Of a stretch of DNA of 64,000 bases, positions 11,533 to 56,812 are shown piece by piece. This DNA comes from Lentimicrobiaceae bacterium (GTDB lineage Bacteria > Bacteroidota > Bacteroidia > Bacteroidales > F082), in the NCBI GenBank assembly GCA_002708315.1, contig PANC01000017.1, positions 7,512-71,511 of the forward strand, given 5' to 3'. Position 1 is the first letter of the stretch. Every line of letters begins with the position of its first letter. A program made the translations under genes and the position numbers. The notes beneath the pieces are model-generated. The model saw nothing but the letters and a program-made list of their open reading frames with translations. It had not been told where the DNA came from and made no database searches.

Positions 11533-11667
11533 GTGGTAACAAAAATAACATAGAGAATGGTTTGTAGAGCACAATTTCTTAATTTTGTTGAAAAATATGC
11601 AGGTCTATACACCTTGATTATTCAGGACATGCTATTTATAGTAGTTTATCATCCAAATAGAATAAAA

Positions 11668-29779: not shown

Positions 29780-30241
29780 CTATAGTTTCTTCTCAAGTTT
29801 CTCAATTTCTTTATTTCCAGACATTAGTGGCATTATTATAGTAGTATCACTTTTTAGCATGAATTCTGACTTTCTAAATGTAGGAGGTGATTTGGGTTTG
29901 TGATGGTAATCGGAAACGCAAACGGGTTCTATGGGAATACCAAAAATACCAGTATCTAATTTTTTATTATTGTTCAGATCTTGAAAACCAGCGGCAGCAT
30001 AAATGCCTGCATGCTTAATGTTAAAAGTTAATTTTATAGTTTTTGTTTTTGGAATAACTATTACTGAATCAATGGCATGTGACTTGTTTTTAAAGTCTTT
30101 CTTACTATCATAAATACCAACATATAACCTGGTGTCATAGGAATTTATATTTTCAATTTCCAGTGTAAGGGTGATATTATCTTGAGCAAGAATATAATTG
30201 GAAGATATTGATAATATGAGTATTAATGCGAAATTCTTCAT
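29780..30241 (-). CDS. DUF2141 family secreted protein
   Basis: It has a signal peptide and GIYAAAGFQDLNNNKKLDTGIFGIPIEP, which matches the characteristic DUF2141 core (G-x-YA ... D-x-N-x-N-x-KLD ... GIP-x-E). Confidence 0.7.
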   Translation of the reverse strand: MKNFALILILSISSNYILAQDNITLTLEIENINSYDTRLYVGIYDSKKDFKNKSHAIDSVIVIPKTKTIKLTFNIKHAGIYAAAGFQDLNNNKKLDTGIFGIPIEPVCVSDYHHKPKSPPTFRKSEFMLKSDTTIIMPLMSGNKEIEKLEKKL

Positions 30242-30251
30242 GGCAATTTTT

Positions 30252-31541
30252 TTAACGATTATCTATGAACACTTTTGGTTTCCGAGAGTCATTTGTGAAA
30301 TGTAATTTTACTATTTCTTGTGGACTATGAAATTCTATTTCTGGAGCTACTCTCAACTTAGCCCGAAAATTATCTTTTATATTTTTCTCATTATCTGATT
30401 TATGAGATAATGAACCTATTTTAATCAAAAGTTCATCAATGCCTAATTCATTTGATGAAACTTCAACGATGTAATTATCTATGTAATCAATTTCGTTCAA
30501 TATATCATATATGGCAGGAGGATATATGGTTGTGCCTTTTAGTTTTATCATTTGCTGCTTTCTTCCAATTACAGGCCCTAATCTCATTGTGGTCCTTCCA
30601 CATTTACATGGTTCTGTGTGATGATAGCACATATCCCCAGTTTTGAATCTTAATAAAGGCATCCCTTCCACACCAATTGTAGTTATTGTAACCTCTCCGG
30701 CTTCTCCTTCGGAAACAGGGTTATTATTCTCGTCTAAAAATTCAACTATTATCATCTCAGGATGATGGTGCCCTCCTTTACCTTCTGAACATTCTGTAAA
30801 TGCAGTTCCCATTTCTGTGGAAGCGTATGTAGAATAAAGCTTTAAATCCCATTCTTTAGTTATTTTCCTCCCCAATTGATTTAAAGTAAAATCAGGATTT
30901 CTTATGGGTTCTCCAATGCAAATTGCTTTCTTTATACTTGTTCCATTAAGACTAATATTGTTATTTAATGCATATGTAATTAATTTGGGAATAAAGGATG
31001 GTACTGTTACAAATCCAGTTGGATTGAACCTTCTAATGGATTCAAATTGCATTTTCTGAAGGCCTGGACCAGTTCTAATTATACCCGCACCTAGTTTTCG
31101 TAATCCCATAAAATAAGCCATGCCAGCCATAAATCTTTTGTCTAGTGTAACCAATAGCTGATATATGTCTTCTTTGGTAGTATCAGCGCATAAAAATGAA
31201 ATATATTCATTGTAAGCTAATCTCTCCAAATCGCCGTTGGTCATTGCAAATATTACTGGTTCGCCAAGAGTGCCCGAAGTAGTTATATAATCAATAACCT
31301 TATCTTTTTCTACGCATAAGAAATCATGATTATGTTTCTGCAAATCGTTTTTTGTAGTTACAGGAATTCTAGTGAGGTCACCTAGAGTCTTTATCGTGTT
31401 TAAATTAATACTATTATCATCAAATAATCTTCTATAAAAGTTGGAATTACTATTTAAATAGCCTAAAATATTTGGAAGTTGACTTTCTTGAAATTTTATA
31501 ATTTCTTCCTTACTTTTTGTTTCAATTTTTGGAATACTCAT
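30252..31541 (-). CDS. PaaK/coenzyme-F390-synthetase-like adenylate-forming enzyme (acyl/aryl-CoA ligase family)
   Basis: It has TTSGTLGEPV (P-loop-like A3 motif), YASTEMG (A5) and RFKTGDM (A8-like). The 429-aa short-form architecture resembles phenylacetate-CoA ligase. Confidence 0.75.
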   Translation of the reverse strand: MSIPKIETKSKEEIIKFQESQLPNILGYLNSNSNFYRRLFDDNSINLNTIKTLGDLTRIPVTTKNDLQKHNHDFLCVEKDKVIDYITTSGTLGEPVIFAMTNGDLERLAYNEYISFLCADTTKEDIYQLLVTLDKRFMAGMAYFMGLRKLGAGIIRTGPGLQKMQFESIRRFNPTGFVTVPSFIPKLITYALNNNISLNGTSIKKAICIGEPIRNPDFTLNQLGRKITKEWDLKLYSTYASTEMGTAFTECSEGKGGHHHPEMIIVEFLDENNNPVSEGEAGEVTITTIGVEGMPLLRFKTGDMCYHHTEPCKCGRTTMRLGPVIGRKQQMIKLKGTTIYPPAIYDILNEIDYIDNYIVEVSSNELGIDELLIKIGSLSHKSDNEKNIKDNFRAKLRVAPEIEFHSPQEIVKLHFTNDSRKPKVFIDNR

Positions 31542-31546
31542 ATTAA

Positions 31547-33247
31547 TTACCTTACTTTTGATTCTAGTTCTGTAATTTTATACTTAACATTATCAGCAGC
31601 TGTGGTGTTTTCAAATTCTTTTGAAAGAGAAAGTTTATAATAATCCAAGGCTCTATCATAATCCTTTATATCATAAAAATAATTAGCTGCTAGAACATAT
31701 CCTTGATAGTAATCTGGATTTACCGATATAAATTCGTTGATGAGATTATCATTATTCTTAATATCAGTTCCATTATTTAAATTATCAATCAATACTTTTT
31801 TAAGCTTTCTAAATTTATTTATACTTGCCAATTCATTATTTATGGTTAATGAATCTGCATTTATTATTCTAACGGAATCATAAATTACTTCCCCTATTCC
31901 TCTCAAATCTGTTTTAGAAAACACATTATCAACATTATAGTTAAGAAAAGCTCCAAATTGATAATCTGTTGTAGATACCCAAAAATCATGTTGGAGGGGT
32001 TGAAATATTATACTATGATGTGAAATAAACTGAGCCATTGCTTTTTCATTTCCAATGCCTATACTTGTATCATCAATTCCATTATAGTCTCTCAAAATTG
32101 ATGCAGCATTCTCATAAGTAATTGTATCATGTTTACTCACTAATTCCAATGCTCTATTTTGTCTATAAACTGATGCAGACTGCTCAATATATTCTTGATT
32201 ATTGGGTTCATTTTTAAATTTATCACTCTGAAAATGATTTGAACAGATTAGTAAATCTTCTTTTGGGTAAAAGGTATCAAATTCTCCTGGTGATTTCTCA
32301 ATTATGATAGCATTATTATCTTCGGCTGACCCAACTAATATTGATTCTGAAACAAATGTCTCTCTTTTTCTTGCAATTGCAATTGCTTCATTAATATTAC
32401 CTGCGTATTGAAGAATCTCACGAGCAAGTAGTGATATTGGCATTTTTGCTTTAGTCGGCATATCAGACTTAGCTGCATTTATTGTAACAGTTAAGCCCTT
32501 TTTATTTATTCCAGAGACAACACCAATCATACTTGCCCAAGTTACATAAGCAAATTCATGACCACTATCAGGTTTAATAAAAGCGACAATTTTATTTTCA
32601 GCAAATTCATCATTAATGTAAAAATCAAAATTTCGGCCAATTATGAGGGAGCTATCATTAAATCCAAGATTTGCACCAAACGAAGTGCAGCCCACAAGTG
32701 CAAGGTTCTGCAATGCATGACCAATGTCGTGAGCTCCATGATAATTTAGCATTCTTTCATACTTAGTTCCAATGTACTCGTAATTATCTGTCGCACTAAA
32801 AGAGACACCATATATTTCTTCAATGTATTCCGGAGGCACATATTTATGCATATCACGGTTAAACCATGCAATAAAGTATTTTAAAAATCTTAAATACCCT
32901 TTGGAAGGAACTAGAGTATTTATTTGATCCACAAATGAGTCCTCTTGTTGTTTTATAAGTTCCTTTGTTAGTTTACCATTTATAACTCCAATCTCGAAAG
33001 GATTTCCTTCTAAATACATCTCCCATAGCCCAAAAGCATTTTTTCTAAGCCATGAATTACCAACAATAAAATAATTGCTATCATATATTTCACGTTCTAA
33101 ATCAAGCACTTCCATATTATCTATATTGGGAGGGCTTATAGTTGTCATAAGATTAAATATTATTGTGATTGTTACCACTACAATAACAAGCAAAATGGAA
33201 ATATTTCTAAGTTTTATCAAATACTTATATTTCTTGTTAGGTTTCAT
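31547..33247 (-). CDS. Membrane-anchored C45-family Ntn enzyme (acyl-CoA:6-APA acyltransferase-like) with C-terminal TPR-like region
   Basis: It has an N-terminal positively charged stretch plus one TM span. A putative self-processing/nucleophile site LVG-CTSF is present (Cys187, codon 32687-32689), followed by IGRNFDF. The C-terminal ~80 aa are TPR-like (YYQGYVLAANYFYDIKDYDRALDYYKLSL). Confidence 0.6.
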   Translation of the reverse strand: MKPNKKYKYLIKLRNISILLVIVVVTITIIFNLMTTISPPNIDNMEVLDLEREIYDSNYFIVGNSWLRKNAFGLWEMYLEGNPFEIGVINGKLTKELIKQQEDSFVDQINTLVPSKGYLRFLKYFIAWFNRDMHKYVPPEYIEEIYGVSFSATDNYEYIGTKYERMLNYHGAHDIGHALQNLALVGCTSFGANLGFNDSSLIIGRNFDFYINDEFAENKIVAFIKPDSGHEFAYVTWASMIGVVSGINKKGLTVTINAAKSDMPTKAKMPISLLAREILQYAGNINEAIAIARKRETFVSESILVGSAEDNNAIIIEKSPGEFDTFYPKEDLLICSNHFQSDKFKNEPNNQEYIEQSASVYRQNRALELVSKHDTITYENAASILRDYNGIDDTSIGIGNEKAMAQFISHHSIIFQPLQHDFWVSTTDYQFGAFLNYNVDNVFSKTDLRGIGEVIYDSVRIINADSLTINNELASINKFRKLKKVLIDNLNNGTDIKNNDNLINEFISVNPDYYQGYVLAANYFYDIKDYDRALDYYKLSLSKEFENTTAADNVKYKITELESKVR

Positions 33248-34739
33248 CTAAATTGATCTCCTTAATAAGATTTGCAGTGCCAAAAAACTCACCACATGTA
33301 ATAATTGCGCTTAGGCTAACGCCTAATACTCCATGGAGGTTCAGATTTTGTCCGGTGAAAAATAAATTATCAAGTTTAGTTTTTGTATGAATATAAGAAC
33401 CCAATGGATTTTTGTGGTCTCTTAAGGTTCCATACATTGACCCCTTTGGTGAACCAAGATAATCTAGATAAGTTAATGGAGTTGAAATGTAGTAACTATC
33501 AATACTTTCTTTTAATTCTGGAAATTGTTTAGAAGCAAGTTCAATTAGTTTTTTTGCCTTATCCTCCTTAAATTCTTTGTAATCAGCTCCTCTCTTTTTT
33601 GAGTCTAAATCTTTCCACTTTGCTACTTCTTCAAATTCCATATGAGTAAGTAAACCAATACATTTAGCATACTTACCTCCATCGTGTGGAACACTGTAAT
33701 GCATAAAATAATGTTCAGGCCAGGTAACCGAATTATAATTAGATGCATACCAAACATCATCACCTTTGTAATAATTGTAGTTATGATTACGATATTTAAA
33801 GCAATTATCCTTTAAAACTAAATTGATAGCAAATGCAGAAAGAGTATTTTCTTTTCTGTTCATTCTGTTCCTAAAAGATTTCTTGATTCCACCATCAGGT
33901 ATAAGGCTCATTGTGGTAGAAGGATGGACGTTGGATATGAAATTTTTTGCTGTAAATACATCTCCGTTAATTGTTTTCACAGATTTTACCAAATCATCTG
34001 CCGTATCAATACCTATAACTGCGCTATTTGTTATAACCTTGCCACCATTGGCAATTATCTGAGATACTAATTTTTCTGAGATTTGCGAGCTACGACCTAC
34101 TATTCTATATGCACTGGATATATAATGGTTGTTGATAAGTGCATGAACATATAAGGGAGATTTACTCTTAACACCTCCATAAACAAAATTTAGAGCGGAT
34201 AATACTTGCTGTAACTTTTTGTTGGTTGTTAATGACTGAATAAATTCCCAGGTATTTATTTTGTGGTATTCATTAATATTTATTTCATTATTACCATTTG
34301 CATGTAATAAGTTAACTTCTTGTAAGTCAATAACTTTGTGAATTTCTTCAATATAATTATCAATGGCAACTTCTTCGTCAGGAAAATAATCAATCATCTT
34401 TTTTCTAAAGCTATCCCAGCCAATTGGAAACTCGTATTCATAACCTCCAATATTAAATACATCAAAACACGCATCATCTAGCCTTTGGTAAGCTATATCA
34501 TCAAGCAGACCGAAATAGCTAAAAATTTTATGAAGAGGTTGTCCCTTATCCAAGCCTCCAAGATAATGTAATCCTGTACTAAAATTATATCCTTTACGAT
34601 TGTATGATTGCAAGGAACCTCCATATTGATAATTCTTTTCAAGAACCAAAACCTTCATTCCATGTTTTGCCATTAAGGCGCCACAGAGCAGTCCACCCAA
34701 TCCACTACCTAATATTATGGAGTCGTATTGATAGCTCAA
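33237..34739 (-). CDS. NAD(P)/FAD-dependent oxidoreductase (phytoene-desaturase/CrtI-like family)
   Basis: It has the dinucleotide fold DSIILGSGLGGLLCGALMAKHGMKVLVLEKNYQYGG. The start is a forced TTG that overlaps the upstream TGA (TTGA at 34736-34739). Confidence 0.75.
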   Translation of the reverse strand: MSYQYDSIILGSGLGGLLCGALMAKHGMKVLVLEKNYQYGGSLQSYNRKGYNFSTGLHYLGGLDKGQPLHKIFSYFGLLDDIAYQRLDDACFDVFNIGGYEYEFPIGWDSFRKKMIDYFPDEEVAIDNYIEEIHKVIDLQEVNLLHANGNNEININEYHKINTWEFIQSLTTNKKLQQVLSALNFVYGGVKSKSPLYVHALINNHYISSAYRIVGRSSQISEKLVSQIIANGGKVITNSAVIGIDTADDLVKSVKTINGDVFTAKNFISNVHPSTTMSLIPDGGIKKSFRNRMNRKENTLSAFAINLVLKDNCFKYRNHNYNYYKGDDVWYASNYNSVTWPEHYFMHYSVPHDGGKYAKCIGLLTHMEFEEVAKWKDLDSKKRGADYKEFKEDKAKKLIELASKQFPELKESIDSYYISTPLTYLDYLGSPKGSMYGTLRDHKNPLGSYIHTKTKLDNLFFTGQNLNLHGVLGVSLSAIITCGEFFGTANLIKEINLDET

Positions 34740-37700
34740 TTCTTTTGGGATTTAATTATATAAATAATATTTGATGTTCTTTTTGTATTATCAATAACAT
34801 CCATCTTCATATTTCTATGGGTTACTATTTTTTCAATTTTTAACTTAGAGGTAAATTCTAGTTTATTGTCATATTTGTTAAACCCTAATCTTGTGGAGAA
34901 AAATTCAGTTACAATAGTTCCAATGTGTCTGCTTGTCATATCTTTATCAGCATCCCTTATAATAATCATACCATTTTCATTTAAGCTACTTATGCATGAA
35001 TCTATTATCAGCTCTTGCTTATCAGTGGGAAGATAATGGAGAACATCATTTAGTATGAATACGTCAGATTTATTGAGGACTAAGTTAGTTATATCTGCTG
35101 AAATAAAAGTAACATTATCTGATTTTACTGCACAGTTCTTTGCAGTAGCAATTTTATTATAATCATAATCTACTCCAGTGATAACTCTATCATTGGACAT
35201 CAACCCAAGTAAAAGACTTAAATAACCATAGCCACAACCTAGATCACTTACTACTGAGGTATTAGGAATTAAATCATTAAATAATTTATAATCATCTTCA
35301 AGATTGATTTTTATTTTTGTATACCATTCTAATACTGGTCCTTTGTAAATGAAATTATTTTTTATAAAGTTGCTGAAATAATTTGGTGTCTCTAAGTATC
35401 TAGCAACTTCGTGGTATTCATTCTCAAAGTACTTCTTGATGTTTTTTGCTTGATCTCTTGGTGTGACTCCAAAGGCGTGTTCATTAACCCTAATTCGCGG
35501 AAGAAATTTAGTTACTATTTCAGCTCTTTTAAGAAAAAATTCACTTTTCTTTAGGGCTTCCTTTTGCCCATAAATAATAATTGGTAATATTTCTAAATCC
35601 AATTCGGATGCAAGCTGAAAAGCTCCCTTATGAAATCTTTTTAACTTATTACCTTCTGATCTGTGTCCTTCGGGAAAAATAACAACGGAGTACCCTTCAT
35701 CTGTTTGTTTTTTAACCTGCTCTAGCATATAATCAAAATCACCATCTACTTCAATGAAGCCAGCATACCTTAGTGCACGACCGTAAATAGGGCTTGAAAA
35801 ATTTCTTGGGTTTGTTAGTGCAACAACACGCCAGTTTAGTAACATCATTAACATTACATCAACATGGCTTTGGTGATTTGCAATAATAATAGAAGGCTTA
35901 ATATAATCTTCACCAGTTGTGTTAATAATTGTCTTCTTAGACATAAAATTCATGTATATCATTAACCATGTTAGATACCTGAATACTTTGTGAAGTAGAA
36001 CTTTCTTCTTTGATCTTTTTATTGGCACAAATTCAAATAGAATAGTAATAAGAGAAAGTATTATAGAACCTGAAACAAATACCAGAAGTGCCCATATTGA
36101 GAATATTAAATCTATAAAAGTTATCGGTCTGTTTCGTTTACCATTCTTATTGTATACTAGCCATCGAAAAATTATGGGTAATAATGAAAAGGTTACTATT
36201 ATTACAGACATAATTCCAATAATTGACATTATTGCTATTGATCTTAATGCTGGATGTTGTGCAAATATCAATACTCCCACACCAGCTATTGTAGTGATCC
36301 CAGATAGAATTATGGATACTTTATAATGCGTTAATTCTTCCTTACCAGTTTTGAATTCCAATAATAGTCCTCTCATTATAAATATGCTATAGTCTATGCC
36401 AAGGCCAAATATAAATGTAAGAATAATTACATTGAAAATATTAAAATCTATTCCTAATATGCCCATAATCCCAACTGTCCAAATCCAGCTTACAATTATT
36501 GGAATCATTGTTATAATGGCAAGTTCGATTCTACCGTAGGCAATTAGAAGAATTAAAAATACTAGTGATAGTGATATGGTTACTAATTTGTTAAAGTTGT
36601 TATTGAGGATTGTTACAAATTCACTGGTTATAAGCCTTTTGTCAATAATCCAAACATGATCCATATCATCAAATTGATTGTAAACAGCATTTATGTCTGT
36701 ATTTAAATTATTAACCTTTATAATATTTATAATTGCACAAAGAGAGTCTTTTTCAATTAAAAAATTTTCAATGAAGAGATCATAAATAATTTTAGAGTCT
36801 TCTATAGTTATTGTATGATAATCTTTTTTAAGAAGTTCAAAAAAATCATCAAATGCGTTTTCTCTAAAGCCTGACTTTGTAGCGCATGAATCTATTATTA
36901 TTTTTAGGTTTTGAGATTTATTTACCCAATAATTATTCCATTTATCAATCGCATTATTTTGGTCATTTTGTGATGGGAATATTTTATTAATTACTGAAGC
37001 CCCTTTTATTAAACCATTAGCTTCAAGTTCATAAATTATTTTCCCAACTTCAGCATTTCTTTCAAGTGCTTTTTGTGAGTCTTTGCCCGTTGTAACTATG
37101 TAAATAGTTTTTTTGCTAAGGCTTGTTATAGCATTAATTCTTTTCTCTGTTTCAGCAAGCTGATCACTCATGTAGTTGTTTTTCATCATATCTGCATCAA
37201 AACCTACATTACTTGATGTTATGAAAAGAATTATTGTAATGATTACTATGATGTATTTCAAATATTTACCTCTGGAGTAATCATACTTTGCAATAGTATC
37301 TATGATTGATAAGTTACTCTTACGCTTATCTTTTGACTTACCCAATAAATGTGGCATAACAACCAATGAAAATATTGCTGCACTTATTATACTAATAGCT
37401 GCGAATAGACCTAGATCATTTAGGGCTGCGGAATTAACAAAATATAATGACAAGAAAGCAGAAGCAGTTGTCAAACTACTTAAAATAATGGATCCTGATA
37501 AATTATTTAGAATTGTTGTTTTTGACACTCCTTCTCGAAAATGAGAATATATATGTAGTGAGTAATCTATACATATTCCCAAAAGTACAGCCCCAATACC
37601 CAATGAAATGGCGCTTACCTCTCCTTTAATAAGATATAAGACTGCAAGTGAAACAATTGCACCAAATATAGCAGGCATAAATATTATTATGAATGCTCTC

Positions 37701-38578
37701 TTACTTCTAAAGAAAAATGTGATAACTATAATCAATAGTATTATGGCAATACTAACGGTTATTATAATATCACTCTTTATTTGTCTAGCATTACCAAGTG
37801 CAACCAAGGCATTACCAAAGTAATCAACATTAAATTGATTATTAAATTTTTGGTTTAATGCCTCAATGGTCATATCAATATTATAAAATAGCACTTCATT
37901 TTCTGCTGTTTTATTGCTTGATGCAGGTGTCAGAAGAAAAATTATACTCCTTTTATCTTTGGTAATAAAGTATTTGCCATATGTTAGGAAATTGTCATCA
38001 GAATTTACAGTTTTAAGTTTGTTAAGTACAATTGGCGTCAGGTGCAAAGGATCTGCGGAAATCATAGCTTTTGTGGCAAAAGATACAGGCCCTATTAGGT
38101 TAGTGTAATTGCTTCTGATGGTTTTACTTACGTTCAATGGATTTATTATGGTATCAATAATATCATAGTCGGAATCCGAAAGAAATATGGGCAGATTTGA
38201 ACTTAATAGGTCATATACTTCCATCATCTCATCTTTTGATGGAGCATAATCAATTGTTTTTATCAAATTCGGTACATACCTTGAATAAATGGAGTCGGTT
38301 AAATTATCGGCAAACTCGGAGAGTAATTTGGCATTGACCTGAGAGGTATCATTTAAGCTTATACTAAATACAATTTTATCGAGTAGTTTGGAGTTAGAAT
38401 AAACAAAGTTCACATGGTTTAATTTCTTATTATCGGGAAGAATTTTAGTAATATCTTCAGAAAGTGAGATCTTTGAGGCAAGAATACCACATAGCACAAT
38501 AATCACTATTAACAGAGACAGTGATTTTAATCTGTTATTCCTGATTAGATTATATATACCAACAAAAAAACTGTTCAT
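34736..38578 (-). CDS. Trifunctional fusion: MMPL/RND-type exporter + PlsC-type lysophospholipid acyltransferase + class I SAM methyltransferase
   Basis: 1280 aa. Two 5-6-TM bundles each carry a G-x-x-IDYS motif (GICIDYSLH aa 334-342, GLGIDYSIF aa 725-733) and are separated by soluble loops (aa 1-810). The acyltransferase HX4D motif is NHQSHVD (aa 901-907, nt 35858-35878) and FPEGHRS is at aa 968-974. Methyltransferase motif I is VSDLGCGYG (aa 1110-1118, nt 35225-35251). Confidence 0.8.
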   Translation of the reverse strand: MNSFFVGIYNLIRNNRLKSLSLLIVIIVLCGILASKISLSEDITKILPDNKKLNHVNFVYSNSKLLDKIVFSISLNDTSQVNAKLLSEFADNLTDSIYSRYVPNLIKTIDYAPSKDEMMEVYDLLSSNLPIFLSDSDYDIIDTIINPLNVSKTIRSNYTNLIGPVSFATKAMISADPLHLTPIVLNKLKTVNSDDNFLTYGKYFITKDKRSIIFLLTPASSNKTAENEVLFYNIDMTIEALNQKFNNQFNVDYFGNALVALGNARQIKSDIIITVSIAIILLIIVITFFFRSKRAFIIIFMPAIFGAIVSLAVLYLIKGEVSAISLGIGAVLLGICIDYSLHIYSHFREGVSKTTILNNLSGSIILSSLTTASAFLSLYFVNSAALNDLGLFAAISIISAAIFSLVVMPHLLGKSKDKRKSNLSIIDTIAKYDYSRGKYLKYIIVIITIILFITSSNVGFDADMMKNNYMSDQLAETEKRINAITSLSKKTIYIVTTGKDSQKALERNAEVGKIIYELEANGLIKGASVINKIFPSQNDQNNAIDKWNNYWVNKSQNLKIIIDSCATKSGFRENAFDDFFELLKKDYHTITIEDSKIIYDLFIENFLIEKDSLCAIINIIKVNNLNTDINAVYNQFDDMDHVWIIDKRLITSEFVTILNNNFNKLVTISLSLVFLILLIAYGRIELAIITMIPIIVSWIWTVGIMGILGIDFNIFNVIILTFIFGLGIDYSIFIMRGLLLEFKTGKEELTHYKVSIILSGITTIAGVGVLIFAQHPALRSIAIMSIIGIMSVIIVTFSLLPIIFRWLVYNKNGKRNRPITFIDLIFSIWALLVFVSGSIILSLITILFEFVPIKRSKKKVLLHKVFRYLTWLMIYMNFMSKKTIINTTGEDYIKPSIIIANHQSHVDVMLMMLLNWRVVALTNPRNFSSPIYGRALRYAGFIEVDGDFDYMLEQVKKQTDEGYSVVIFPEGHRSEGNKLKRFHKGAFQLASELDLEILPIIIYGQKEALKKSEFFLKRAEIVTKFLPRIRVNEHAFGVTPRDQAKNIKKYFENEYHEVARYLETPNYFSNFIKNNFIYKGPVLEWYTKIKINLEDDYKLFNDLIPNTSVVSDLGCGYGYLSLLLGLMSNDRVITGVDYDYNKIATAKNCAVKSDNVTFISADITNLVLNKSDVFILNDVLHYLPTDKQELIIDSCISSLNENGMIIIRDADKDMTSRHIGTIVTEFFSTRLGFNKYDNKLEFTSKLKIEKIVTHRNMKMDVIDNTKRTSNIIYIIKSQKN

Positions 38579-39789
38579 TTATTTTCTTTAAGGCCCGAGG
38601 TAACTTTTATGATAGTCCACGAAATCAAAAAAGAAAGAATACCCAATGATAACCCAAGAAGAAGACTTCCGAATATATATTGTATAATGCTGTACCCAAA
38701 CTCTTTAAGGGTTTTATAAAACTCTCCATCAACTATCTGTTGTTTTAAATAATAGATAGTATCAATAGTAAACTCTTGTGGGTTATCAAAGAACAGACTT
38801 CCAAATTGATAGCTAAAATATATAATAAATGGTATGGCAGGAGGTAGACTAATATTTGAAAATATTAGTACAATTATTTTATTCAGCCTGAATATATGAG
38901 CCAAAAAAGCAGCTACTATCATTTGAAAACCCCATATGGGAGCAATGCCCATAAATATGCCGAACCCGATTGCCATACTGATCTTTTGTGGATTTTCATT
39001 ATGTAGCATAATTTGTTCTCGTACAACCTTAGTGAACTTGTTTCGAGTAATATATCGAAAGGATTTTATGGGTAAGACCATTAAAAATGTAATTAAAACA
39101 AGAACTGTATTTAGTAAGCTTATTCTCATAAAATCTCTGAATGGTCTAAAGTGGGTAATCCTGTTCTCGGGTGATGCATAATATACTTTTACTGGTATTG
39201 GAATAATGTTTATCTCTTTCCAAGCGGATCTAACAAGTATTTCAATTTCAAACTCAAAACCAGTGGTTACAAATTTCGTGTTTTTATAATACTTGATTGG
39301 ATATATTCTGAATCCCGACTGAGTGTCAGGTAATCTTTTATTCGTTTCTGCCCAGAACCAAAAATTTGAGAACTTATTGGCAAATGTATTCTTTGATGGC
39401 ATTCCATCTGCATTAATATTTCTAGAACCAATTATAAGAGCATCTGGATTGTGGGTTAATGCATTAAACATCTTAGGAATATCATCAGGATAATGTTGTC
39501 CGTCTGAGTCTATGGTCATCGCATATTCAAAACCAAGAGATAAGGCTTCAGCAATTCCTGTTTTTATGGCTGCACCTTTGCCTTTATTTAATGAAAATGT
39601 AATAATTCTAAGACAAGAAACAGAACTTAATAATTCCGCTGTGGAATCAGTAGATCCATCGTTCACTATGATAATGTTATTCGAGTATTTTTGGACTTCA
39701 CCTATAACATCTATTAGTGTATTAGCATTATTATATGTAGGTATAATAACACATATTTTTGAAATTAAATTATTTACAACGTCCTCCAA
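38575..39789 (-). CDS. GT2 glycosyltransferase fused to a DUF2062-type polytopic membrane domain
   Basis: The GT-A motifs are CVIIPTYNN, VNDGSTDST and TIDSDGQH (DxD). The C-terminal ~150 aa have 3-4 TM spans resembling DUF2062. The start is a forced TTG at 39789, and the stop overlaps the next start (ATGA). Confidence 0.7.
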   Translation of the reverse strand: MEDVVNNLISKICVIIPTYNNANTLIDVIGEVQKYSNNIIIVNDGSTDSTAELLSSVSCLRIITFSLNKGKGAAIKTGIAEALSLGFEYAMTIDSDGQHYPDDIPKMFNALTHNPDALIIGSRNINADGMPSKNTFANKFSNFWFWAETNKRLPDTQSGFRIYPIKYYKNTKFVTTGFEFEIEILVRSAWKEINIIPIPVKVYYASPENRITHFRPFRDFMRISLLNTVLVLITFLMVLPIKSFRYITRNKFTKVVREQIMLHNENPQKISMAIGFGIFMGIAPIWGFQMIVAAFLAHIFRLNKIIVLIFSNISLPPAIPFIIYFSYQFGSLFFDNPQEFTIDTIYYLKQQIVDGEFYKTLKEFGYSIIQYIFGSLLLGLSLGILSFLISWTIIKVTSGLKENK

Positions 39790-39807: not shown

Positions 39808-40803
39808 TTAATCATAATATGATTTACTATCTATTAACTGATTTTTATCATTCTTGTATAGCGCATAATTAAAACCAGGTTTTAGACAATAGGCTCCTGT
39901 TTCCCCTGCTTTATTCATTGCAATAAAACCTATTTGATATGAGAGGTGGTCAGGAACTTTTTTCACTATTCTAATAACAGCTTCTTCAACAGCCTGCTGA
40001 GGAGTTTTTCCATTTCTCATTAACTCAACAACTAAAAATGAACCTACGGTTTTCATTACTAGCTCTCCCATACCTGTTGCAGTTGCACCACCAACTTCAT
40101 TGTCAACAAACAATCCTGCACCAATAATAGGAGAATCTCCCACTCTACCTCTTTGCTTGAAACCTAACCCACTTGTTGTGCAAGCTCCAGCCATATCACC
40201 CTTGGCATCGATGGCAAGGAGTCCAATTGTATCATGGTAATGGTTTGGAGCATTCTCCCAATTTATAGCAGGATTATAATCTCTTTTTTTAATTTCTTTT
40301 TCCCAGGCCTTCTTAGCCTTTTCGGTCAAAAGATTTTCTCTTTTGAAGCCATTTTTAATAGCAAAATCTTGTGCTCCTTGTCCTGATAGCATAACGTGCG
40401 GCGTACTATCCATTATTAACCTTGCTACTGATATGGGGTGCACAATATCCTCCAAAAAGCATACTGAACCAGCATTTCCATCTGGACCCATTATTGAAGC
40501 ATCAAGAGTAACCACACCTTCTATATCAGGTAATCCCCCCCGCCCAACACTCATATTTTCGGGATCTGCTTCGGGTATCCAAACACCTTGTTCAACTGCG
40601 TCAACAATACTCCCTCCATTATTGAGTACCTTGATGACTGCCTCATTTGATTCAAGTCCGTGGTTCCATGTTGATATAACAACTGGTTTGTTTGATACTG
40701 AAGGGATTTTTGAATTTAATGATGCCGACTTTAGTACTCCAGGAATCAATGTAAGAGCACCAGCAACACTTGTTTGCTCTAGAAATTTCCTTCTATTAAT
40801 CAT
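39808..40803 (-). CDS. Glycosylasparaginase / isoaspartyl peptidase (asparaginase-2 Ntn hydrolase) with TAT-type signal
   Basis: It has the NRRKFLEQTSVAGALTL twin-arginine signal, an HDTIG autoprocessing Thr, and GAGLFVDNEVGGATATGMGE, which closely resembles the flavobacterial glycosylasparaginase signature. Confidence 0.75.
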   Translation of the reverse strand: MINRRKFLEQTSVAGALTLIPGVLKSASLNSKIPSVSNKPVVISTWNHGLESNEAVIKVLNNGGSIVDAVEQGVWIPEADPENMSVGRGGLPDIEGVVTLDASIMGPDGNAGSVCFLEDIVHPISVARLIMDSTPHVMLSGQGAQDFAIKNGFKRENLLTEKAKKAWEKEIKKRDYNPAINWENAPNHYHDTIGLLAIDAKGDMAGACTTSGLGFKQRGRVGDSPIIGAGLFVDNEVGGATATGMGELVMKTVGSFLVVELMRNGKTPQQAVEEAVIRIVKKVPDHLSYQIGFIAMNKAGETGAYCLKPGFNYALYKNDKNQLIDSKSYYD

Positions 40804-40833: not shown

Positions 40834-42195
40834 TTATGAAATATTTTTTGGTTTATAACCCCTAATACCATAGAATGCAATATAAATATAGCTAGCAACA
40901 GGTACTATAAATGATATATGAACACCATATCCATCTGCAATCATACCCATTATTAGTGGAAGCAGTGCGCCACCAAGTATCATCATAACTAATAATGATG
41001 ATCCCTGACTTGTATATTTACCCAGACCAGATATTGCAAGTGTAAAAATATTAGACCACATTATTGAATTGAATAATCCTATACCTATTATTGTCCATAA
41101 TGCTATTTCTCCTGTCGTAGACAAAGCGATGGCAAGAAAAATAATATTGATAAATGCAAATATGTACAGAGTTCTATTTGGAAGAGATTTCCCAATGAAG
41201 AATCCCATGAGATTCAAAATGAGAAAAACAAGGTAAATATTTGCTGATGCAAAACTGGTTGTCAATCCTATTATTACATATGCTGCAATAGAAATTAAAG
41301 GCATTGAGATATATTTTTTTAGGTTATTTGTATCACTTAGTGATATTGCTCCCAGAAACCTTCCAATCATTTGTCCTCCCCAATATATTGAAACATAAAT
41401 ACTTGCTTCTGCTGCATTAATACCTGCTATTTCAGGAAGAGTTATGTAGCTTATTAGCATACTACCAATACTTACTTCACCACCAACATACATGAATATG
41501 GCAATCATCCCAAATACGAGCTGAGGATATTTGAGAGCCTGAAACCCTGGTTTAACCTCATCTGGGTTGGTAAACCTTGGAAGTGGTGTTTTTGAAATGG
41601 CAAACGCCATAATCATAAAAATAAGAGCAAATACTAAATACGGCACTTTAACTGCATCTGCTCCCGTTGAACCTTTGAAGAAAATAAAAACCAAGTAGCC
41701 TCCAAGAATAGGAGCAACGGTTGTTCCTAAAGAGTTGAAACCTTGAGCTAAATTTAATCTGGATGAGGCTGAGTCAGGACTACCTAAAATTGCAACATAA
41801 GGATTTGCAGCTATTTGCAGAAGTGTGAAGCCAAGCCCCATTATAAAAAGGGCGGATAGGAAAAACCCATACATATGAAATTGTGCAGCGGGATAAAATA
41901 GTAAAGCTCCAATACCCGAAACTATTAGCCCTATTATAATTCCTTTCTTATAGCCAATTTTATTTATGGGGTCGCCCTTGTAAACAGAAATAATAAAGTA
42001 GATAACAGAACCTATAAAATAGGAAGTGAAAAATGCAAATTGAATTAGCATTGCTTTTGTATGTGTCAATGTAAAAGCATCCTGCAAATAGGGGATAAGA
42101 ATATCATTAAGTGCAGTCATAAATCCCCACATAAAAAATAGGAATGTTAGACCAACAAATGCTCTTCTGTATATGTTTGCACTATTGTCGCTCAT
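40834..42195 (-). CDS. Sugar MFS transporter (FucP/GluP-like, fucose or glucose/galactose:H+ symporter family)
   Basis: 453 aa with 12 predicted TM spans. The N-terminal FFMWGFMTALNDILIP motif is typical of the FucP/GluP subfamily. Confidence 0.7.
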   Translation of the reverse strand: MSDNSANIYRRAFVGLTFLFFMWGFMTALNDILIPYLQDAFTLTHTKAMLIQFAFFTSYFIGSVIYFIISVYKGDPINKIGYKKGIIIGLIVSGIGALLFYPAAQFHMYGFFLSALFIMGLGFTLLQIAANPYVAILGSPDSASSRLNLAQGFNSLGTTVAPILGGYLVFIFFKGSTGADAVKVPYLVFALIFMIMAFAISKTPLPRFTNPDEVKPGFQALKYPQLVFGMIAIFMYVGGEVSIGSMLISYITLPEIAGINAAEASIYVSIYWGGQMIGRFLGAISLSDTNNLKKYISMPLISIAAYVIIGLTTSFASANIYLVFLILNLMGFFIGKSLPNRTLYIFAFINIIFLAIALSTTGEIALWTIIGIGLFNSIMWSNIFTLAISGLGKYTSQGSSLLVMMILGGALLPLIMGMIADGYGVHISFIVPVASYIYIAFYGIRGYKPKNIS

Positions 42196-42222: not shown

Positions 42223-42681
42223 TTAGTTGTTTAGTAAATTTTTAATGATTGTTGACACTGTTCTGTTATCAGCTTTTCCAGCCAATTGTTTTGAGGCTAT
42301 TCCCATTACCTTACCCATATCTTTCATTGTTGATGCTTCTGCTTCTGTAATAATATTCTGAATTAGAGCTTTTATTTCGTCTTCTGACAATTGTTCTGGA
42401 AGATAATTTTCAATGATTTCAGACTGAAATAATTCAACTTCAGCCAAATCATCTCTGCCTTGATTTTTATATATTTCGGCTGACTCCTTGCGTTGCTTCA
42501 CAAGCTTTTGCAATACTTTTAATTCAACTTCCTTAGGTATTTCAGCTCCACCTATTCCTACTCCTGTTTTCTCCATCAGAAGAGCAGATTTTATAGCTCT
42601 AAGGGATTCAAGTTTTGGTTTATTGCGATTAAGCATCGCTTTTTTAATATCATTGTTTATCAATATCTCTAAACTCATCAT
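42223..42681 (-). CDS. GatB/YqeY domain protein
   Basis: 152 aa. Its LESLRAIKSALL ... QRKESAEIYKNQGRDDLAEVELFQSEIIENYLP region matches the YqeY family pattern. Confidence 0.8.
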   Translation of the reverse strand: MMSLEILINNDIKKAMLNRNKPKLESLRAIKSALLMEKTGVGIGGAEIPKEVELKVLQKLVKQRKESAEIYKNQGRDDLAEVELFQSEIIENYLPEQLSEDEIKALIQNIITEAEASTMKDMGKVMGIASKQLAGKADNRTVSTIIKNLLNN

Positions 42682-42694
42682 TATATAGTTTATG

Positions 42695-42702
42695 CAAATA
42701 TA
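42695..42702 (-). promoter_or_regulatory. -7 promoter box TAnnTTTG (TATATTTG on the minus strand)
   Basis: The plus strand reads CAAATATA. The box lies 14-17 nt upstream of the tandem ATGs at 42681 and 42678, so the leader would be very short. Confidence 0.4.
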
Positions 42703-45870: not shown

Positions 45871-46644
45871 TTATTTTTTAGTGCAAACTATTTGATCTTT
45901 ATATTTTAGATTTATTGTTCTATACTTATTCCAACCCTCTGTCACTAAGTTTTTCTTGTAATATGATGTGAGGTTTTCTATTTTTTGTTTTATATTGTCT
46001 GTTTTACCAAGTTTTATTATATGATTTCCGAGCATTGGTATCAAATCATATTCACCTATACTATTCACATATACCTGCCCTATCTGAGATTTTAGTAATT
46101 CATTTTTTAAGATGAGATTATTTATATGAAATACATTATTTAGAGGAGTATTGATATAAATGCTATCATAGATATTACTGCTTAATTTAATATTCATATC
46201 ACCAATATAACCACTTGCTATAATTACTCTAGGCGTGTAACGATTACTTAATGGAATGAAGTTACCATGTTTGTCCACATATAAACTTTTTCCGTCAGTG
46301 TCATAAATCCTAATAACTGGAACTTTTTCAGAAACATTTATTAAAAGTTTGCCATCCAGTGTCATATAGCTATCAACATGTTCTATATGAGGGTTTACAA
46401 TTAGTAGCTCCTCTATGCTCTCTATCTCTGCTTCCCTCAATGTTAGGGTTTGGATACTATCGATATTCCCCAACTCACTAAGAATAATGTCTGAAGAAAG
46501 AAAACCTATTTCTGTTGGTCGATATATATTTACTGTAATATCTTTTACCCAGATATCAGTATTCTCATGTTTTATTAGGACTGTAAGCGAAACTAATCCC
46601 ATTACAGCAAGGATAAATAGCACTATTTTAAATATTCTTAGCAT
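45871..46644 (-). CDS. ftsQ: Cell division protein FtsQ/DivIB-like
   Basis: It has a single N-terminal TM span followed by a POTRA-like region, and sits in the conserved dcw position between murC and ftsA. Confidence 0.7.
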   Translation of the reverse strand: MLRIFKIVLFILAVMGLVSLTVLIKHENTDIWVKDITVNIYRPTEIGFLSSDIILSELGNIDSIQTLTLREAEIESIEELLIVNPHIEHVDSYMTLDGKLLINVSEKVPVIRIYDTDGKSLYVDKHGNFIPLSNRYTPRVIIASGYIGDMNIKLSSNIYDSIYINTPLNNVFHINNLILKNELLKSQIGQVYVNSIGEYDLIPMLGNHIIKLGKTDNIKQKIENLTSYYKKNLVTEGWNKYRTINLKYKDQIVCTKK

Positions 46645-46647
46645 ATC

Positions 46648-48000
46648 TTAGTTTAAAAATAGCGTTTCGATTTCTTGGACCATTGTTCCTATATCTCCTG
46701 CACCCATTGTTATCAAAATCTCTGGTTTATTTGCTTTTAAAAATTGTATTACCTCATTTCTTTTTGAAACTGTACAATTTTTATTTGACATTTTATTTTT
46801 TATTAAACTTGAACTAACTCCTTTTATTGGTTGTTCCCTGGCTGGATAAATAGGTAATAATAATACCTCATCTAATTTGGAAAGTTCATTGGCAAATTCC
46901 TTTGCAAAATCATTTGTTCTGCTGTAAAGGTGTGGTTGGAATACTCCTGTTATTTTCTTTCCAGGGTATAGTTCTTTTATGGTTTTGATGGTGTATTTTA
47001 TTTCCTCTGGATGATGCGCATAATCATCTATATAGATTATATCACTTGATTCAACTCGGTAATCCATTCTTCTTTCCACACCTTTAAATGATTCAATACC
47101 AGATTTAATATCATCACCTGATAACCCGGTAAGATATCCAATTGACGATGCGGCAAGAGTATTCATTATATTATGTATTCCAGGAACTTGAATTCTTACC
47201 TCTGGAATCAATAATCCTTCAACCTTAATATCTATGTGGTATTTTCCATTTTTTATTTTAATATTTGTGGCAGTTGCATTGGTATCTGAATTTACTGCAT
47301 AACTCATTTTTTCGCATGATAATTTATCAAATGGACCTACCGATAAATTGTGTATTAGAGTTCCGTTTTCTTTTATACGCTGTCCAAATTCAAAAAATGT
47401 TGATTTTATATCATTGTGATCATTATAAATGTCCAAATGATCTTCATCAGTTGACGATATAACAGCTATTAAGGGATTCAGTTTAAGTAATGATCTATCA
47501 TACTCATCAGCTTCAACCAACAGATAGTTCGAGTTTTCGGATAGTATTAGATTAGAGTTGTAATTTCTACAGATGCCTCCAACAAATGCTGATACATTTA
47601 AACCAGCGCTCTTTAACATATGCGCAGTTAGGGCTGTTATACTTGTTTTACCATGAGTTCCTGCTATGGCAATGGTTCTAAACTGTTCAGTTATGAGACT
47701 TAAGAATTCCGATCTCTTGAAAATGGGTGTTTTTCTATTTCGAAAATATTTAAGCTCAATATTATTTTTTGGTATTGCAGGTGTGTAGATAACATAATCA
47801 ACGTTTTCTGGAATCATACTTGTGTTTTCTTCAAAGTGTAAAAGCATGCCTTCTTCTATTAATTCATCCGTTAGGTTTGTTGGTTGTGCATCATAACCAT
47901 AAACCACCGCCCCAAGATGTTTGCACCATCTTGCAAGTGCGCTCATACCTATTCCCCCAAGACCAATAAAGTACAATATGTCTCCACTTTTAATTGTCAT
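46648..48000 (-). CDS. murC: UDP-N-acetylmuramate--L-alanine ligase
   Basis: The ATG at 48000 gives MTIKSGDILYFIGLGGIGMSALA, and GTHGKTS follows. The 15 extra codons in the ORF track run into murG and are unlikely to be translated. Confidence 0.9.
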   Translation of the reverse strand: MTIKSGDILYFIGLGGIGMSALARWCKHLGAVVYGYDAQPTNLTDELIEEGMLLHFEENTSMIPENVDYVIYTPAIPKNNIELKYFRNRKTPIFKRSEFLSLITEQFRTIAIAGTHGKTSITALTAHMLKSAGLNVSAFVGGICRNYNSNLILSENSNYLLVEADEYDRSLLKLNPLIAVISSTDEDHLDIYNDHNDIKSTFFEFGQRIKENGTLIHNLSVGPFDKLSCEKMSYAVNSDTNATATNIKIKNGKYHIDIKVEGLLIPEVRIQVPGIHNIMNTLAASSIGYLTGLSGDDIKSGIESFKGVERRMDYRVESSDIIYIDDYAHHPEEIKYTIKTIKELYPGKKITGVFQPHLYSRTNDFAKEFANELSKLDEVLLLPIYPAREQPIKGVSSSLIKNKMSNKNCTVSKRNEVIQFLKANKPEILITMGAGDIGTMVQEIETLFLN

Positions 48001-49093
48001 CTCCAATAAGTTTAATAACCTCGTCAGCAATATCAGAGGCGGCATTTGTATAGCTAAAAGAATCTAGATTATTAATTATTTCATCTTGCAACTCACTATC
48101 TTTAACAAGGTTTTCTAATACAACAGGTAGCTTACTAATACTATGATTTTCCTCTATTAATAGTCCTGCATTTCCTTCAACTAGCGACATTGCATTCTTT
48201 GTTTGATGATCTTCTGCAGCCGAAGGCAATGGTATAAAAATTGCAGGTTTTTTTGAAGCTATTATTTCTGCAATGGCAATTGCTCCAGCTCTAGAAATGA
48301 TAAAATCACATGCAGAGTATGCCATATCCATCCTGTGTATGAATTTCCTAGCTTGAACATTTTTATATTTTGTGGTATTTTTAACTATTGTATCAAAAGA
48401 ACTATTGCCTGTTTGCCATATCAATTGAATATCCATATCTAGGATAGTTTTAATATTATACAAAATTGCCTCATTTATTTTCTGAGCTCCCTGACTTCCT
48501 CCTATTATTAGTAATGTGTTTTTATCTGAGTCTAGTCCAAAAAAGTTTAATGCTTCTTCTTTATTTATCTTATTTAGAATTTCTTTTCGGATTGGGTTTC
48601 CAGTTATTTTTAACTTATCTGGTGGAAAGAATTTTTCCATATCAGAATATGATACGCAAACCGTAGATGCATTTTTTGCAAGTAATTTATTTGTTATCCC
48701 AGGAAATGCATTTTGCTCATGAATGAGAGTTGGTATCTTCGATTTGGATGCACAATATAACAATGGCCCACTAGCATATCCACCTGTTCCAATTACTACA
48801 TTAGGTCTAAATTTGTATATGATACTTTTTGCTTTCAATAAACTTAATATTAGCTTAAATGGAAATAGTAAATTTTTTATTGTTAACCTCCTTTGTAGAC
48901 CACTTATCCATAATCCTTTTATTTGATAACCTGCCATAGGGACTTTCTCCATCTCCATGCGCCCTTTTGCACCTACGAACTGAATTTCTATATCATTTAT
49001 CTTCGATTTAAGTTCATTAGCTATTGCTATTGCTGGAAATATATGACCCCCAGTTCCACCACCACTTATGAGTATTTTGGTGCTTTTACTCAT
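47990..49093 (-). CDS. murG: Undecaprenyldiphospho-muramoylpentapeptide beta-N-acetylglucosaminyltransferase
   Basis: It has ISGGGTGGHIFPA. The ATG at 49093 (MSKSTK...) is preferred over the listed TTG at 49102. It overlaps the ftsW stop by 8 nt. Confidence 0.9.
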   Translation of the reverse strand: MSKSTKILISGGGTGGHIFPAIAIANELKSKINDIEIQFVGAKGRMEMEKVPMAGYQIKGLWISGLQRRLTIKNLLFPFKLILSLLKAKSIIYKFRPNVVIGTGGYASGPLLYCASKSKIPTLIHEQNAFPGITNKLLAKNASTVCVSYSDMEKFFPPDKLKITGNPIRKEILNKINKEEALNFFGLDSDKNTLLIIGGSQGAQKINEAILYNIKTILDMDIQLIWQTGNSSFDTIVKNTTKYKNVQARKFIHRMDMAYSACDFIISRAGAIAIAEIIASKKPAIFIPLPSAAEDHQTKNAMSLVEGNAGLLIEENHSISKLPVVLENLVKDSELQDEIINNLDSFSYTNAASDIADEVIKLIGDDN

Positions 49094-50249: not shown

Positions 50250-50252
50250 TGG

Positions 50253-51599: not shown

Positions 51600-51611
51600 T
51601 TGTTTTTTTCA

Positions 51612-52850: not shown

Positions 52851-52854
52851 ATTA

Positions 52855-56429: not shown

Positions 56430-56812
56430 TTTACATTTATGGTTTTTACTGGTTGTTTGTTTTTCTTAATTCCTTTTTTTTCTAATTTTCCAGCTATCTG
56501 TGATTGCTTTTCTATGTGCATCAGCTGAGTTTTAACGTGTATGTATTGATATCTCAGCTCTTTTAATTCTTTTCTAAGCTTATTTATTTCACGAATGTTA
56601 TTTTCAGCGTAATAATTATTTGCTATGTATATAAATGCCAGAAATGATAGAAAGATTAGGTAGCGAAAGAATTTGAAGGTACCAGTTGATATTATTGAGC
56701 CACCAAGTACATTCTTCAATGCATCTCCTACTTTACTATCCTTAAAAACAGTTTTTGCAGACTGCTTCTTTTTTTCGGATGCATTAATTATTTTATTTGA
56801 TTTTGGTGACAT
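56426..56812 (-). CDS. ftsL: FtsL-like cell division protein
   Basis: 128 aa, bitopic (FRYLIFLSFLAFIYIANNYYA), followed by a coiled-coil heptad region. It sits in the conserved slot between rsmH and ftsI, with 4-nt and 1-nt overlaps with its neighbours. Confidence 0.7.
   Translation of the reverse strand: MSPKSNKIINASEKKKQSAKTVFKDSKVGDALKNVLGGSIISTGTFKFFRYLIFLSFLAFIYIANNYYAENNIREINKLRKELKELRYQYIHVKTQLMHIEKQSQIAGKLEKKGIKKNKQPVKTINVK

Follow-up and report, generated by a model that had tools for sequence, protein, structure and literature searches.

The 64,000-nt stretch of DNA analyzed in this work (hereafter the window; contig PANC01000017.1 of the Lentimicrobiaceae bacterium assembly GCA_002708315.1) harbors on its minus strand a compact block of six genes, coding for a glycosyltransferase, a triple-fusion exporter, a flavoprotein, an autoproteolytic enzyme, an adenylating enzyme, and a small secreted protein; the first five are named here after genes of flexirubin biosynthesis. 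The listing of open reading frames (ORFs) revealed that all six genes are intact, and it confirmed the order and coordinates given by a previous reading of the letters made without database searches (hereafter the sequence-only reading). The junctions described there were also found to match exactly: proceeding from FlxT to the DUF2141 gene, they consist of two 4-nt overlaps (ATGA and TTGA), an 11-nt overlap, and gaps of 5 and 10 nt, the first gene of the block having TTG as start codon.

Coordinates in the window of the six-gene block and of the features lying upstream of it
Feature	Coordinates	Strand	Length (aa)	Annotation
FlxT	38575..39789	-	404	Family 2 glycosyltransferase (GT2) fused to membrane DUF2062; ApeJ counterpart
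FlxU	34736..38578	-	1280	Triple fusion: MMPL/HAE3-type resistance-nodulation-division (RND) exporter, PlsC-type acyltransferase, S-adenosylmethionine (SAM) methyltransferase
FlxV	33237..34739	-	500	CrtI/CrtD/retinol-saturase-like FAD oxidoreductase
FlxW	31547..33247	-	566	Membrane-anchored C45 N-terminal nucleophile (Ntn) autoproteolytic acyltransferase/hydrolase
FlxY	30252..31541	-	429	PaaK-type aryl-acid (4-coumarate) CoA ligase; starter-unit activation in the flexirubin pathway
DUF2141 protein	29780..30241	-	153	Signal peptide; terminal gene of the block
Glycosylasparaginase	39808-40803	-		Pfam and NCBIfam
gluP-type major facilitator superfamily (MFS) sugar transporter	40834-42195	-		Pfam and NCBIfam
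yqeY	42223-42681	-		Pfam and NCBIfam
Promoter-like -7 motif	42695..42702	-		Bacteroidota-type, TATATTTG; 14 nt upstream of yqeY

The domain assignments of the block proteins all pass the Pfam and NCBIfam thresholds, and those proposed in the sequence-only reading were upheld in every case. FlxY satisfies the NCBIfam equivalog NF053551 (flexirubin biosynthesis putative acyl-CoA ligase FlxY) by scoring 683.8 bits where 520 are required, the match being full-length (residues 6-429 on positions 1-424 of the model), and it also matches the PaaK structure 4r1l (E = 6.7e-44). FlxT matches Glycos_transf_2 and DUF2062 in Pfam (86 bits each), contains four transmembrane (TM)-like segments, is 34% identical over 226 aa to ApeJ of E. 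coli CFT073 (E = 7e-39), and adjoins FlxU in 55 of 62 loci. In FlxU an exporter part (residues 1-855, with about 15 TM-like segments) is followed by an acyltransferase (886-1002) and a methyltransferase (1107-1211), and the motifs H902-x4-D907, P969-E-G971, and G1114-C-G-x-G1118 are invariant across 25 homologues; the protein matches ApeM (phmmer, E = 3.5e-21), and its residues 896-1007 match ApeD (E = 1e-8).

The remaining three proteins have a less defined profile. FlxV, which in 51 of 66 loci is encoded downstream of FlxU, matches NAD_binding_8 and Amino_oxidase in Pfam and falls below the cutoff of every NCBIfam carotenoid equivalog. FlxW matches C45_proenzyme in NCBIfam (225.6 bits, cutoff 85) and AAT in Pfam, with a weak PDB match to the acyl-CoA:6-aminopenicillanic acid (6-APA) acyltransferase 2x1d; for both proteins the PDB sequence searches returned generic FAD-binding and weak AAT/NAAA matches, which do not resolve the function. 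Sequence inspection and a hydropathy scan support the previous suggestion that FlxW is membrane-anchored, through a single N-terminal TM segment, and that the DUF2141 protein (78 bits in Pfam) is secreted, its N-terminus being signal-peptide-like (MKNFALILILSISSNYILAQ|DN). No solved relative of the latter was found, and its AlphaFold single-sequence model (mean pLDDT 47.8) is unusable. Its gene is the last of the block in six loci (L006, L008, L013, L014, L016, and L020; loci of the comparative sample described below are given by their L numbers), lies between the deacetylase and LolA genes in L050, and is also co-located with crtG in carotenoid loci of Sphingomonadales, that is, in a second pigment-lipid context. 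It is absent from the published flx tables, and its recurrence as a secreted member of the block is a minor new point.

Flexirubin clusters were tabulated gene by gene by Schoner et al. 2014 (PMC3992019, Tables S4 and S5). In Chitinophaga pinensis (Cpin_1872-1877, flxT-flxY; PMC3992019) and in Flavobacterium johnsoniae (Fjoh_1079, 1078, 1077, 1076, and 1075; PMC3992019, and McBride et al. 2009 cited there), the same five proteins occur in the same order as in the window, FlxT taking the position of flxT/Fjoh_1079, FlxW that of flxW/Fjoh_1076, and FlxV corresponding to the flavoprotein labelled "retinol-reductase-like". Biochemical work identified the FlxY of C. pinensis as a 4-coumarate-CoA ligase, FlxA being a tyrosine ammonia-lyase (TAL), and FlxW was proposed to perform the ligation to dialkylresorcinol (PMC3992019). 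Since gene order and content match, down to the unusual triple fusion, the locus is, judged on its sequence, the flxT-U-V-W-Y tailoring and export segment of the known cluster with a DUF2141 gene added, and hence a rearranged instance of a system already described. This bears out the likeness of the parts list to the accessory half of aryl-polyene (APE) and flexirubin loci, already remarked in the sequence-only reading and sustained also by the homology to Ape proteins. It is at odds with the proposal made there that the block is the best candidate for an undescribed envelope-lipid system, which is contradicted by the FlxY equivalog, by the published flx order, and by the orthologues residing in canonical clusters.

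These orthologues emerged from the flanks of 80 species-representative loci, which were classified via reference proteins verified by Pfam and NCBIfam. The genes of the pathway fall into four modules. Module A embeds FlxA (TAL), a ketoreductase (KR), a ketosynthase (KS), an acyl carrier protein (ACP), an LpxL-type acyltransferase (AT), and sometimes an O-methyltransferase (OMT); module B is composed of a thioesterase (TE), KS, a chain-length factor (CLF), ACP, KS, and KS; module C contains a deacetylase (Deac), LolA, LolB2, and a dehydratase (DH); module D includes T, U, V, W, and Y, to which V2, placed before Y, and x201 and DUF2141, placed after it, may be added. In about 20 loci the order TE-KS-CLF-ACP-KS-KS-Deac-LolA-LolB2-DH is followed by T-U-V, with W and Y coming next where the flank reaches. 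Other arrangements exist: module C, an inverted A, and then T-U (L057, L059, and L060), an inverted A and then D (L068), and D-A (L070). Among the loci in which FlxU is flanked on each side by 8 kb or more, 32 in number, another module is adjacent in 21 and none in 11. The flexirubin-type pathway is modular and shuffled between genomes; its modular scattering in Bacteroidales and its occurrence in an anaerobic family are modest new points.

The block orthologues found inside complete clusters are 52-74% identical to those of the window (FlxU and FlxY). The closest parallel is L014, a Marinilabiliales metagenome-assembled genome (MAG; CAVZLR010000005.1) with the order FlxA(TAL)-KR-KS-ACP-AT-OMT-Deac-LolA-LolB2(NF053540)-T-U-V-W-V2-Y-x201-DUF2141, where the orthologues of the six genes follow each other as in the window (identity of 74% for FlxY, 60% for FlxT, 57% for FlxW, 52% for FlxU, 46% for FlxV, and 36% for DUF2141). 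Unlike the window, L014 keeps the genes from FlxA to LolB2 directly upstream, and it possesses V2 (a second CrtI-like gene) and x201 (201 aa), both missing from the window. Its TAL scores 856 bits and that of L090 scores 840 bits with the FlxA equivalog, the cutoff of which is 700. The sequence-only reading had reasoned that a constant embedding of the six genes in canonical flexirubin clusters, or a strict co-occurrence with them, would speak for a known system; such embedding was observed in relatives, that is, in the loci mentioned above and in L014.

The window is of metagenomic origin, its genome being a MAG. Its closest species representative is a Lentimicrobiaceae MAG (FlxU 87% identical), the next homologues being at most 64% identical. 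The layout ftsZ-yqeY-MFS-glycosylasparaginase-T-U-V-W-Y-(x201)-DUF2141, followed by pfp, is shared by the window, L003/L008, L006 (without the MFS gene), and L020, and the block keeps its layout in lineages whose FlxU is as little as 59% identical. L004 and L063 have this upstream junction as far as T-U, with no adjoining V-W-Y; in the L004 genome, V-W-Y-DUF2141 and pfp resume beyond an inserted island. In this Lentimicrobiaceae lineage, module D probably stands apart from the other modules, its place being between the dcw cluster and pfp.

Some variations of the block were observed along the way. The V2 flavoprotein, about 22% identical to FlxV, is encoded between flxW and flxY in many clusters (L014 17591-19195, L013, L016, and canonical loci) and is absent from the window clade. 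The x201 gene is a conserved ORF of about 201 aa following flxY with no Pfam or NCBIfam match (L003 18420-19025, L013, L014, L016, L034, L050, L070, and L075); it is present in a relative of 4.26 Mb, and the window, L006, and L020 lack it. The island is about 18 kb long and occupies the same chromosomal site, between flxU and flxV, in several genomes of the window clade (L004 13853-22424; L087/L088 1-6567; L089 1-6543); it brings in a lanthipeptide cluster of class I (the N and C domains of LanB, LanC, an exporter of the C39-ABC type, and small ORFs for precursors) together with a sigma factor and a TPR-CHAT protein of 1014 aa. In a complete chromosome of 4.45 Mb (L089 11517-12923), an IS66-family transposase gene is inserted between flxY and DUF2141. 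Lastly, some members of the window clade have FlxU-type proteins of about 1000 aa missing the methyltransferase domain (L020 7208-10252; P0087 and P0088), with a gap of about 800 nt before flxV in L020, which represents either a domain loss or a frameshift variant.

The absence of chain-building genes and of LolA from the 64 kb, stated in the sequence-only reading, was upheld by two kinds of search. Pfam revealed housekeeping and unrelated genes but no KS, ACP, KR, DH, TE, TAL, or LolA in the window, the scan covering the sizeable ORFs other than seven ORFs of the dcw cluster (45871-54312) and an ftsL-like ORF (56426-56812); for ftsI (54318-56429) and ftsL, support comes from Pfam matches already computed for identical products. 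Hidden Markov models (HMMs) built from the 80 related loci (KS, CLF, ACP, TE, LolA, LolB2, DH, and x201) did not match any window ORF of at least 40 aa at E <= 10. FlxQ (LolA-like), FlxR (LolB2), and a true FlxP were likewise not found in the window (LolA and LolB2 at E <= 10), and their genes may lie elsewhere in the genome. A deacetylase gene of the window (10915-11574, minus strand), flanked by genes for a Big_5 lipoprotein and a histidine phosphatase, was considered as a displaced FlxP and rejected as a distant paralogue, scoring 126 bits on the FlxP HMM versus the 335-419 of true members. Similarly, an aromatic amino-acid lyase gene placed about 3 kb past the right end of the window, adjoining the genes hisS and gap (L091 12957-14483), was considered as the TAL of the pathway and rejected, the product being HutH (TIGR01225, 608 bits, cutoff 539); it reaches 353 bits with the FlxA model (cutoff 700) and shares 32% identity with the TALs of the clusters.

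Where the core genes might reside is indicated by two complete chromosomes of relatives. A genome of 4.62 Mb, which shares the MFS-glycosylasparaginase-T-U junction with the window, carries T-U-...-methyltransferase-Deac-LolA-LolB2 at 1.09-1.12 Mb; its TAL-KR-KS-ACP-AT-OMT genes lie 2.3 Mb off, at 3.38-3.40 Mb. In the 4.45 Mb chromosome, V-W-Y-(IS66)-DUF2141, followed by pfp-AA kinase-FBPase-mfd, is located at 4.13-4.15 Mb, which is the downstream layout of the window, and FlxA (equivalog, 840 bits)-KR-KS-ACP-AT-OMT at 2.45-2.47 Mb, 1.7 Mb off. Module A has its own conserved chromosomal site, since its flanks are syntenic between the two genomes. One of the two options left by the sequence-only reading, a core encoded elsewhere, is therefore what is seen in these two relatives.

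The integrity of the block was evaluated through the ratio of nonsynonymous to synonymous substitution rates (dN/dS), with the 87% identical Lentimicrobiaceae relative as reference. The values obtained for the six genes range from 0.13 to 0.21 (FlxT 0.20, FlxV 0.20, FlxW 0.16, FlxY 0.13, and DUF2141 0.21), those of the flanking housekeeping genes from 0.05 to 0.32, and the dN of FlxY (0.024) reveals a constraint like that of FtsZ and Pfp. All six genes are under purifying selection, and because dN/dS is low and the HX4D, PEG, and GxGxG motifs are invariant, the block does not look like a remnant.

On the whole, we consider it probable, at about 0.8, that the locus represents module D of an aryl-polyene cluster of the flexirubin type, functional and with its polyketide core encoded elsewhere in the genome. 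The doubt that we retain, small but appreciable, concerns the retention of the polyketide synthase (PKS) core by this genome and the question of whether the pathway ends in a true flexirubin. According to the mechanism we propose, FlxY would activate 4-coumarate, which a FlxA TAL with its gene elsewhere would produce from tyrosine, as suggested by the equivalog match and by the C. pinensis biochemistry, and a type II PKS (KS, ACP, KR, and DH), also encoded elsewhere as in the genomes of the relatives, would build the aryl polyene. The methyltransferase domain of FlxU would methylate the aryl head, and its PlsC-type domain, together with FlxT, might attach the chromophore to a glycero- or glycolipid anchor at the inner membrane, as the homology to ApeD and ApeJ suggests. 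More speculatively, FlxV might adjust one double bond, and FlxW might transfer or release the acyl chain, e.g., onto dialkylresorcinol. The MMPL domain of FlxU would then export the lipid, and the secreted DUF2141 protein could, again speculatively, handle it in the periplasm en route to the outer membrane.

A number of points weigh against this interpretation. The core was found neither in the window nor in the 10 kb beyond its right end, these being the regions inspected. Of the complete chromosomes in which the block is intact, the closest, OY781105.1 (4,261,035 bp), has no KS among the 120 matches listed, from which nothing follows because the listed matches are all at least 79% identical. 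The dialkylresorcinol genes darA and darB provide the ester partner by which a true flexirubin is defined, and general Pfam scans of the inspected neighborhoods, made with no search by DarA or DarB models, revealed neither. The roles of FlxV, FlxW, and DUF2141 are without experimental support anywhere, and Lentimicrobiaceae are anaerobic, so that the need for an anti-oxidant pigment is not obvious. Apart from these points, a search of the literature on Lentimicrobium with flexirubin or aryl polyene returned nothing relevant, and no pigment data on Lentimicrobiaceae were found.

Some of these points would be expected if the PKS core had been lost in this lineage and the block repurposed for a non-polyene product, such as an aryl-acyl or an ordinary fatty-acyl glycolipid, which was the second option of the sequence-only reading. 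The empty 64 kb plus 10 kb and the chromosome with an intact block that is not among the listed KS matches are in agreement with this idea; the purifying selection indicates that the block does something, and the tight, conserved linkage to the MFS and glycosylasparaginase genes could hint at a different physiological context. However, the KS absence is uninformative at the identity of the listed matches, and a chromosome with the same layout retains FlxA-KR-KS-ACP. Moreover, FlxY, whose sole known role is the priming of a polyene PKS, is conserved more strongly than any other block protein (74% identity to the cluster copy, with the very low dN given above) and bears no sign of relaxed or redirected selection. 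We consequently regard a repurposed block as unlikely.

Separation from the core might also be taken as the mark of a decaying, non-functional remnant of a flexirubin cluster, and the insertions found in the blocks of related genomes (the lanthipeptide/CHAT island between U and V, and the IS66 element before DUF2141), as well as the L020 FlxU lacking a methyltransferase domain, could be read in the same way. Nevertheless, six intact ORFs with overlapping junctions, dN/dS values comparable with those of the flanking housekeeping genes, conserved catalytic motifs, and a layout kept across diverged lineages make such a decay very improbable. As for a self-contained envelope-lipid system unrelated to flexirubin or APE, the headline of the sequence-only reading, the only observation favoring it is the absence of neighboring core genes; with the FlxY equivalog, the identity of order and content with flx, and the orthologues in canonical clusters, it is refuted by orthology and synteny, and we hold it to be extremely improbable.

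A further question concerns the upstream edge of the locus. The upstream boundary that the sequence-only reading set at glycosylasparaginase does not hold, the stop codon of this gene lying just 18 nt from the GT2 start. Indeed, the gaps of the series yqeY-MFS-glycosylasparaginase-FlxT are of 27, 30, and 18 nt, and all these genes are co-directional. Between 28 and 46.5 kb of this strand, the only -7 motif TAnnTTTG that is intergenic and precedes the start of a gene is that at 42695-42702; the total of the motif is not above that of shuffled sequences (8 vs 11.4), which makes it weak evidence for a promoter. A scan for sigma-70 promoters and terminators gave counts equal to those of shuffles, with a consensus that is inappropriate for Bacteroidota. 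Because of the 27-, 30-, and 18-nt gaps and of the sole intergenic -7 motif before yqeY, the edge at FlxT may not be a real boundary, and the transcription unit may comprise nine genes starting from yqeY.

The MFS-glycosylasparaginase-FlxT-FlxU adjacency is kept in L003, L004, L005, L010, L020, and L063, and the gluP-type MFS and glycosylasparaginase genes lie directly upstream of flxT across lineages with a differing wider context; in L005 (4284-8643), a family 20 glycoside hydrolase (GH20) hexosaminidase accompanies them. This N-glycan-salvage pair might have a functional tie to the GT2 enzyme FlxT, and its possible co-transcription, along with yqeY, with the block is a further minor new point. 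Tentatively, and as a rather doubtful proposal, in the strictly anaerobic Lentimicrobiaceae yqeY-MFS-glycosylasparaginase-flxTUVWY-DUF2141 might be one unit located by the cell-division cluster, the product of which would be an APE lipid (APEL)-like aryl-polyene glycolipid (or a non-polyene aryl-acyl one, if the core is absent) instead of a classical flexirubin, with DUF2141 as a periplasmic factor handling the pigment lipid.

Other features of the window deserve mention. Between 13489 and 16538 (minus strand), a B12-binding radical SAM enzyme (468 aa), a PALP pyridoxal phosphate (PLP)-dependent enzyme (429 aa), and an overlapping ORF of 86 aa without any Pfam match form a row that may be a small modification unit or one resembling those of ribosomally synthesized and post-translationally modified peptides (RiPPs). 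Two large ORFs, 19407-21233 (plus strand, 608 aa), which is kept beside mfd in L001 and L002, and 58443-59927 (minus strand, 494 aa), have no significant Pfam family. Two convergent genes at 115-2841 code for BNR/sortilin-type repeat proteins with C-terminal sorting domains of the type IX secretion system (Por_Secre_tail), by which a Bacteroidota host with type IX secretion is confirmed.

The assignment of the block to module D removes a false lead, what seemed an orphan lipid operon being a piece of the family of pigment biosynthetic gene clusters that is most widespread. In uncultured Bacteroidales, flexirubin-type clusters consist of four modules, frequently dispersed over megabases, and for this reason cluster miners such as antiSMASH can be expected to under-call or mis-call them; an isolated flxTUVWY block should not be counted as a novel system. 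Minor leads are the membership of DUF2141, the roles of FlxV and FlxW, and the use of an aryl-polyene pigment by an anaerobe.

A comparison with known systems helps to delimit what is peculiar to the window. With respect to the published flx cluster, the block has no adjoining KS, ACP, DH, TE, LolA, or TAL gene, lacks flxX (holo-ACP synthase), ends with DUF2141, and is located between the dcw cluster/MFS/glycosylasparaginase genes and pfp; its host is an uncultured member of the anaerobic Bacteroidales, whereas the published hosts, Chitinophaga and Flavobacterium, are aerobic. The accessory genes apeJ, apeM, apeD, apeB, and apeH of the APEL clusters of E. coli CFT073 and Xenorhabdus doucetiae offer a second term of comparison. 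From deletion phenotypes in proteobacteria, ApeD has been proposed to acylate lysophosphatidylglycerol, ApeJ to add N-acetylgalactosamine (GalNAc) and the APE acyl group, ApeB to methylate the aryl head, and ApeM to export the lipid. FlxT is homologous to ApeJ, the FlxU exporter to ApeM, and the FlxU acyltransferase to ApeD, and the two systems share the same logic, in which an aryl starter is activated, methylated, anchored to a glycero- or glycolipid, and exported by an RND pump. They differ in that three functions carried by separate Ape proteins are fused in FlxU; in that FlxY and the FlxU methyltransferase domain have no similarity at E < 0.01 to ApeH and ApeB, respectively; and in that ApeH loads 4-hydroxybenzoic acid (4-HBA) directly on the ACP, while FlxY is of the PaaK type, which makes a CoA thioester. 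In addition, FlxV, FlxW, and DUF2141 have no Ape counterpart, and ApeG, ApeL, and ApeN have none in the window. From these homologies, the block appears to work like an APE accessory set without being a member of the ape family proper. Finally, the N-terminal 850 residues of FlxU match the HAE3 (TIGR00921) and HpnN (TIGR03480) models with E values of about 1e-33, far below the equivalog cutoffs, and are predicted to be a proton-driven envelope-lipid exporter, to which, with respect to the HpnN/MmpL exporters, FlxU adds two fused cytoplasmic enzyme domains.

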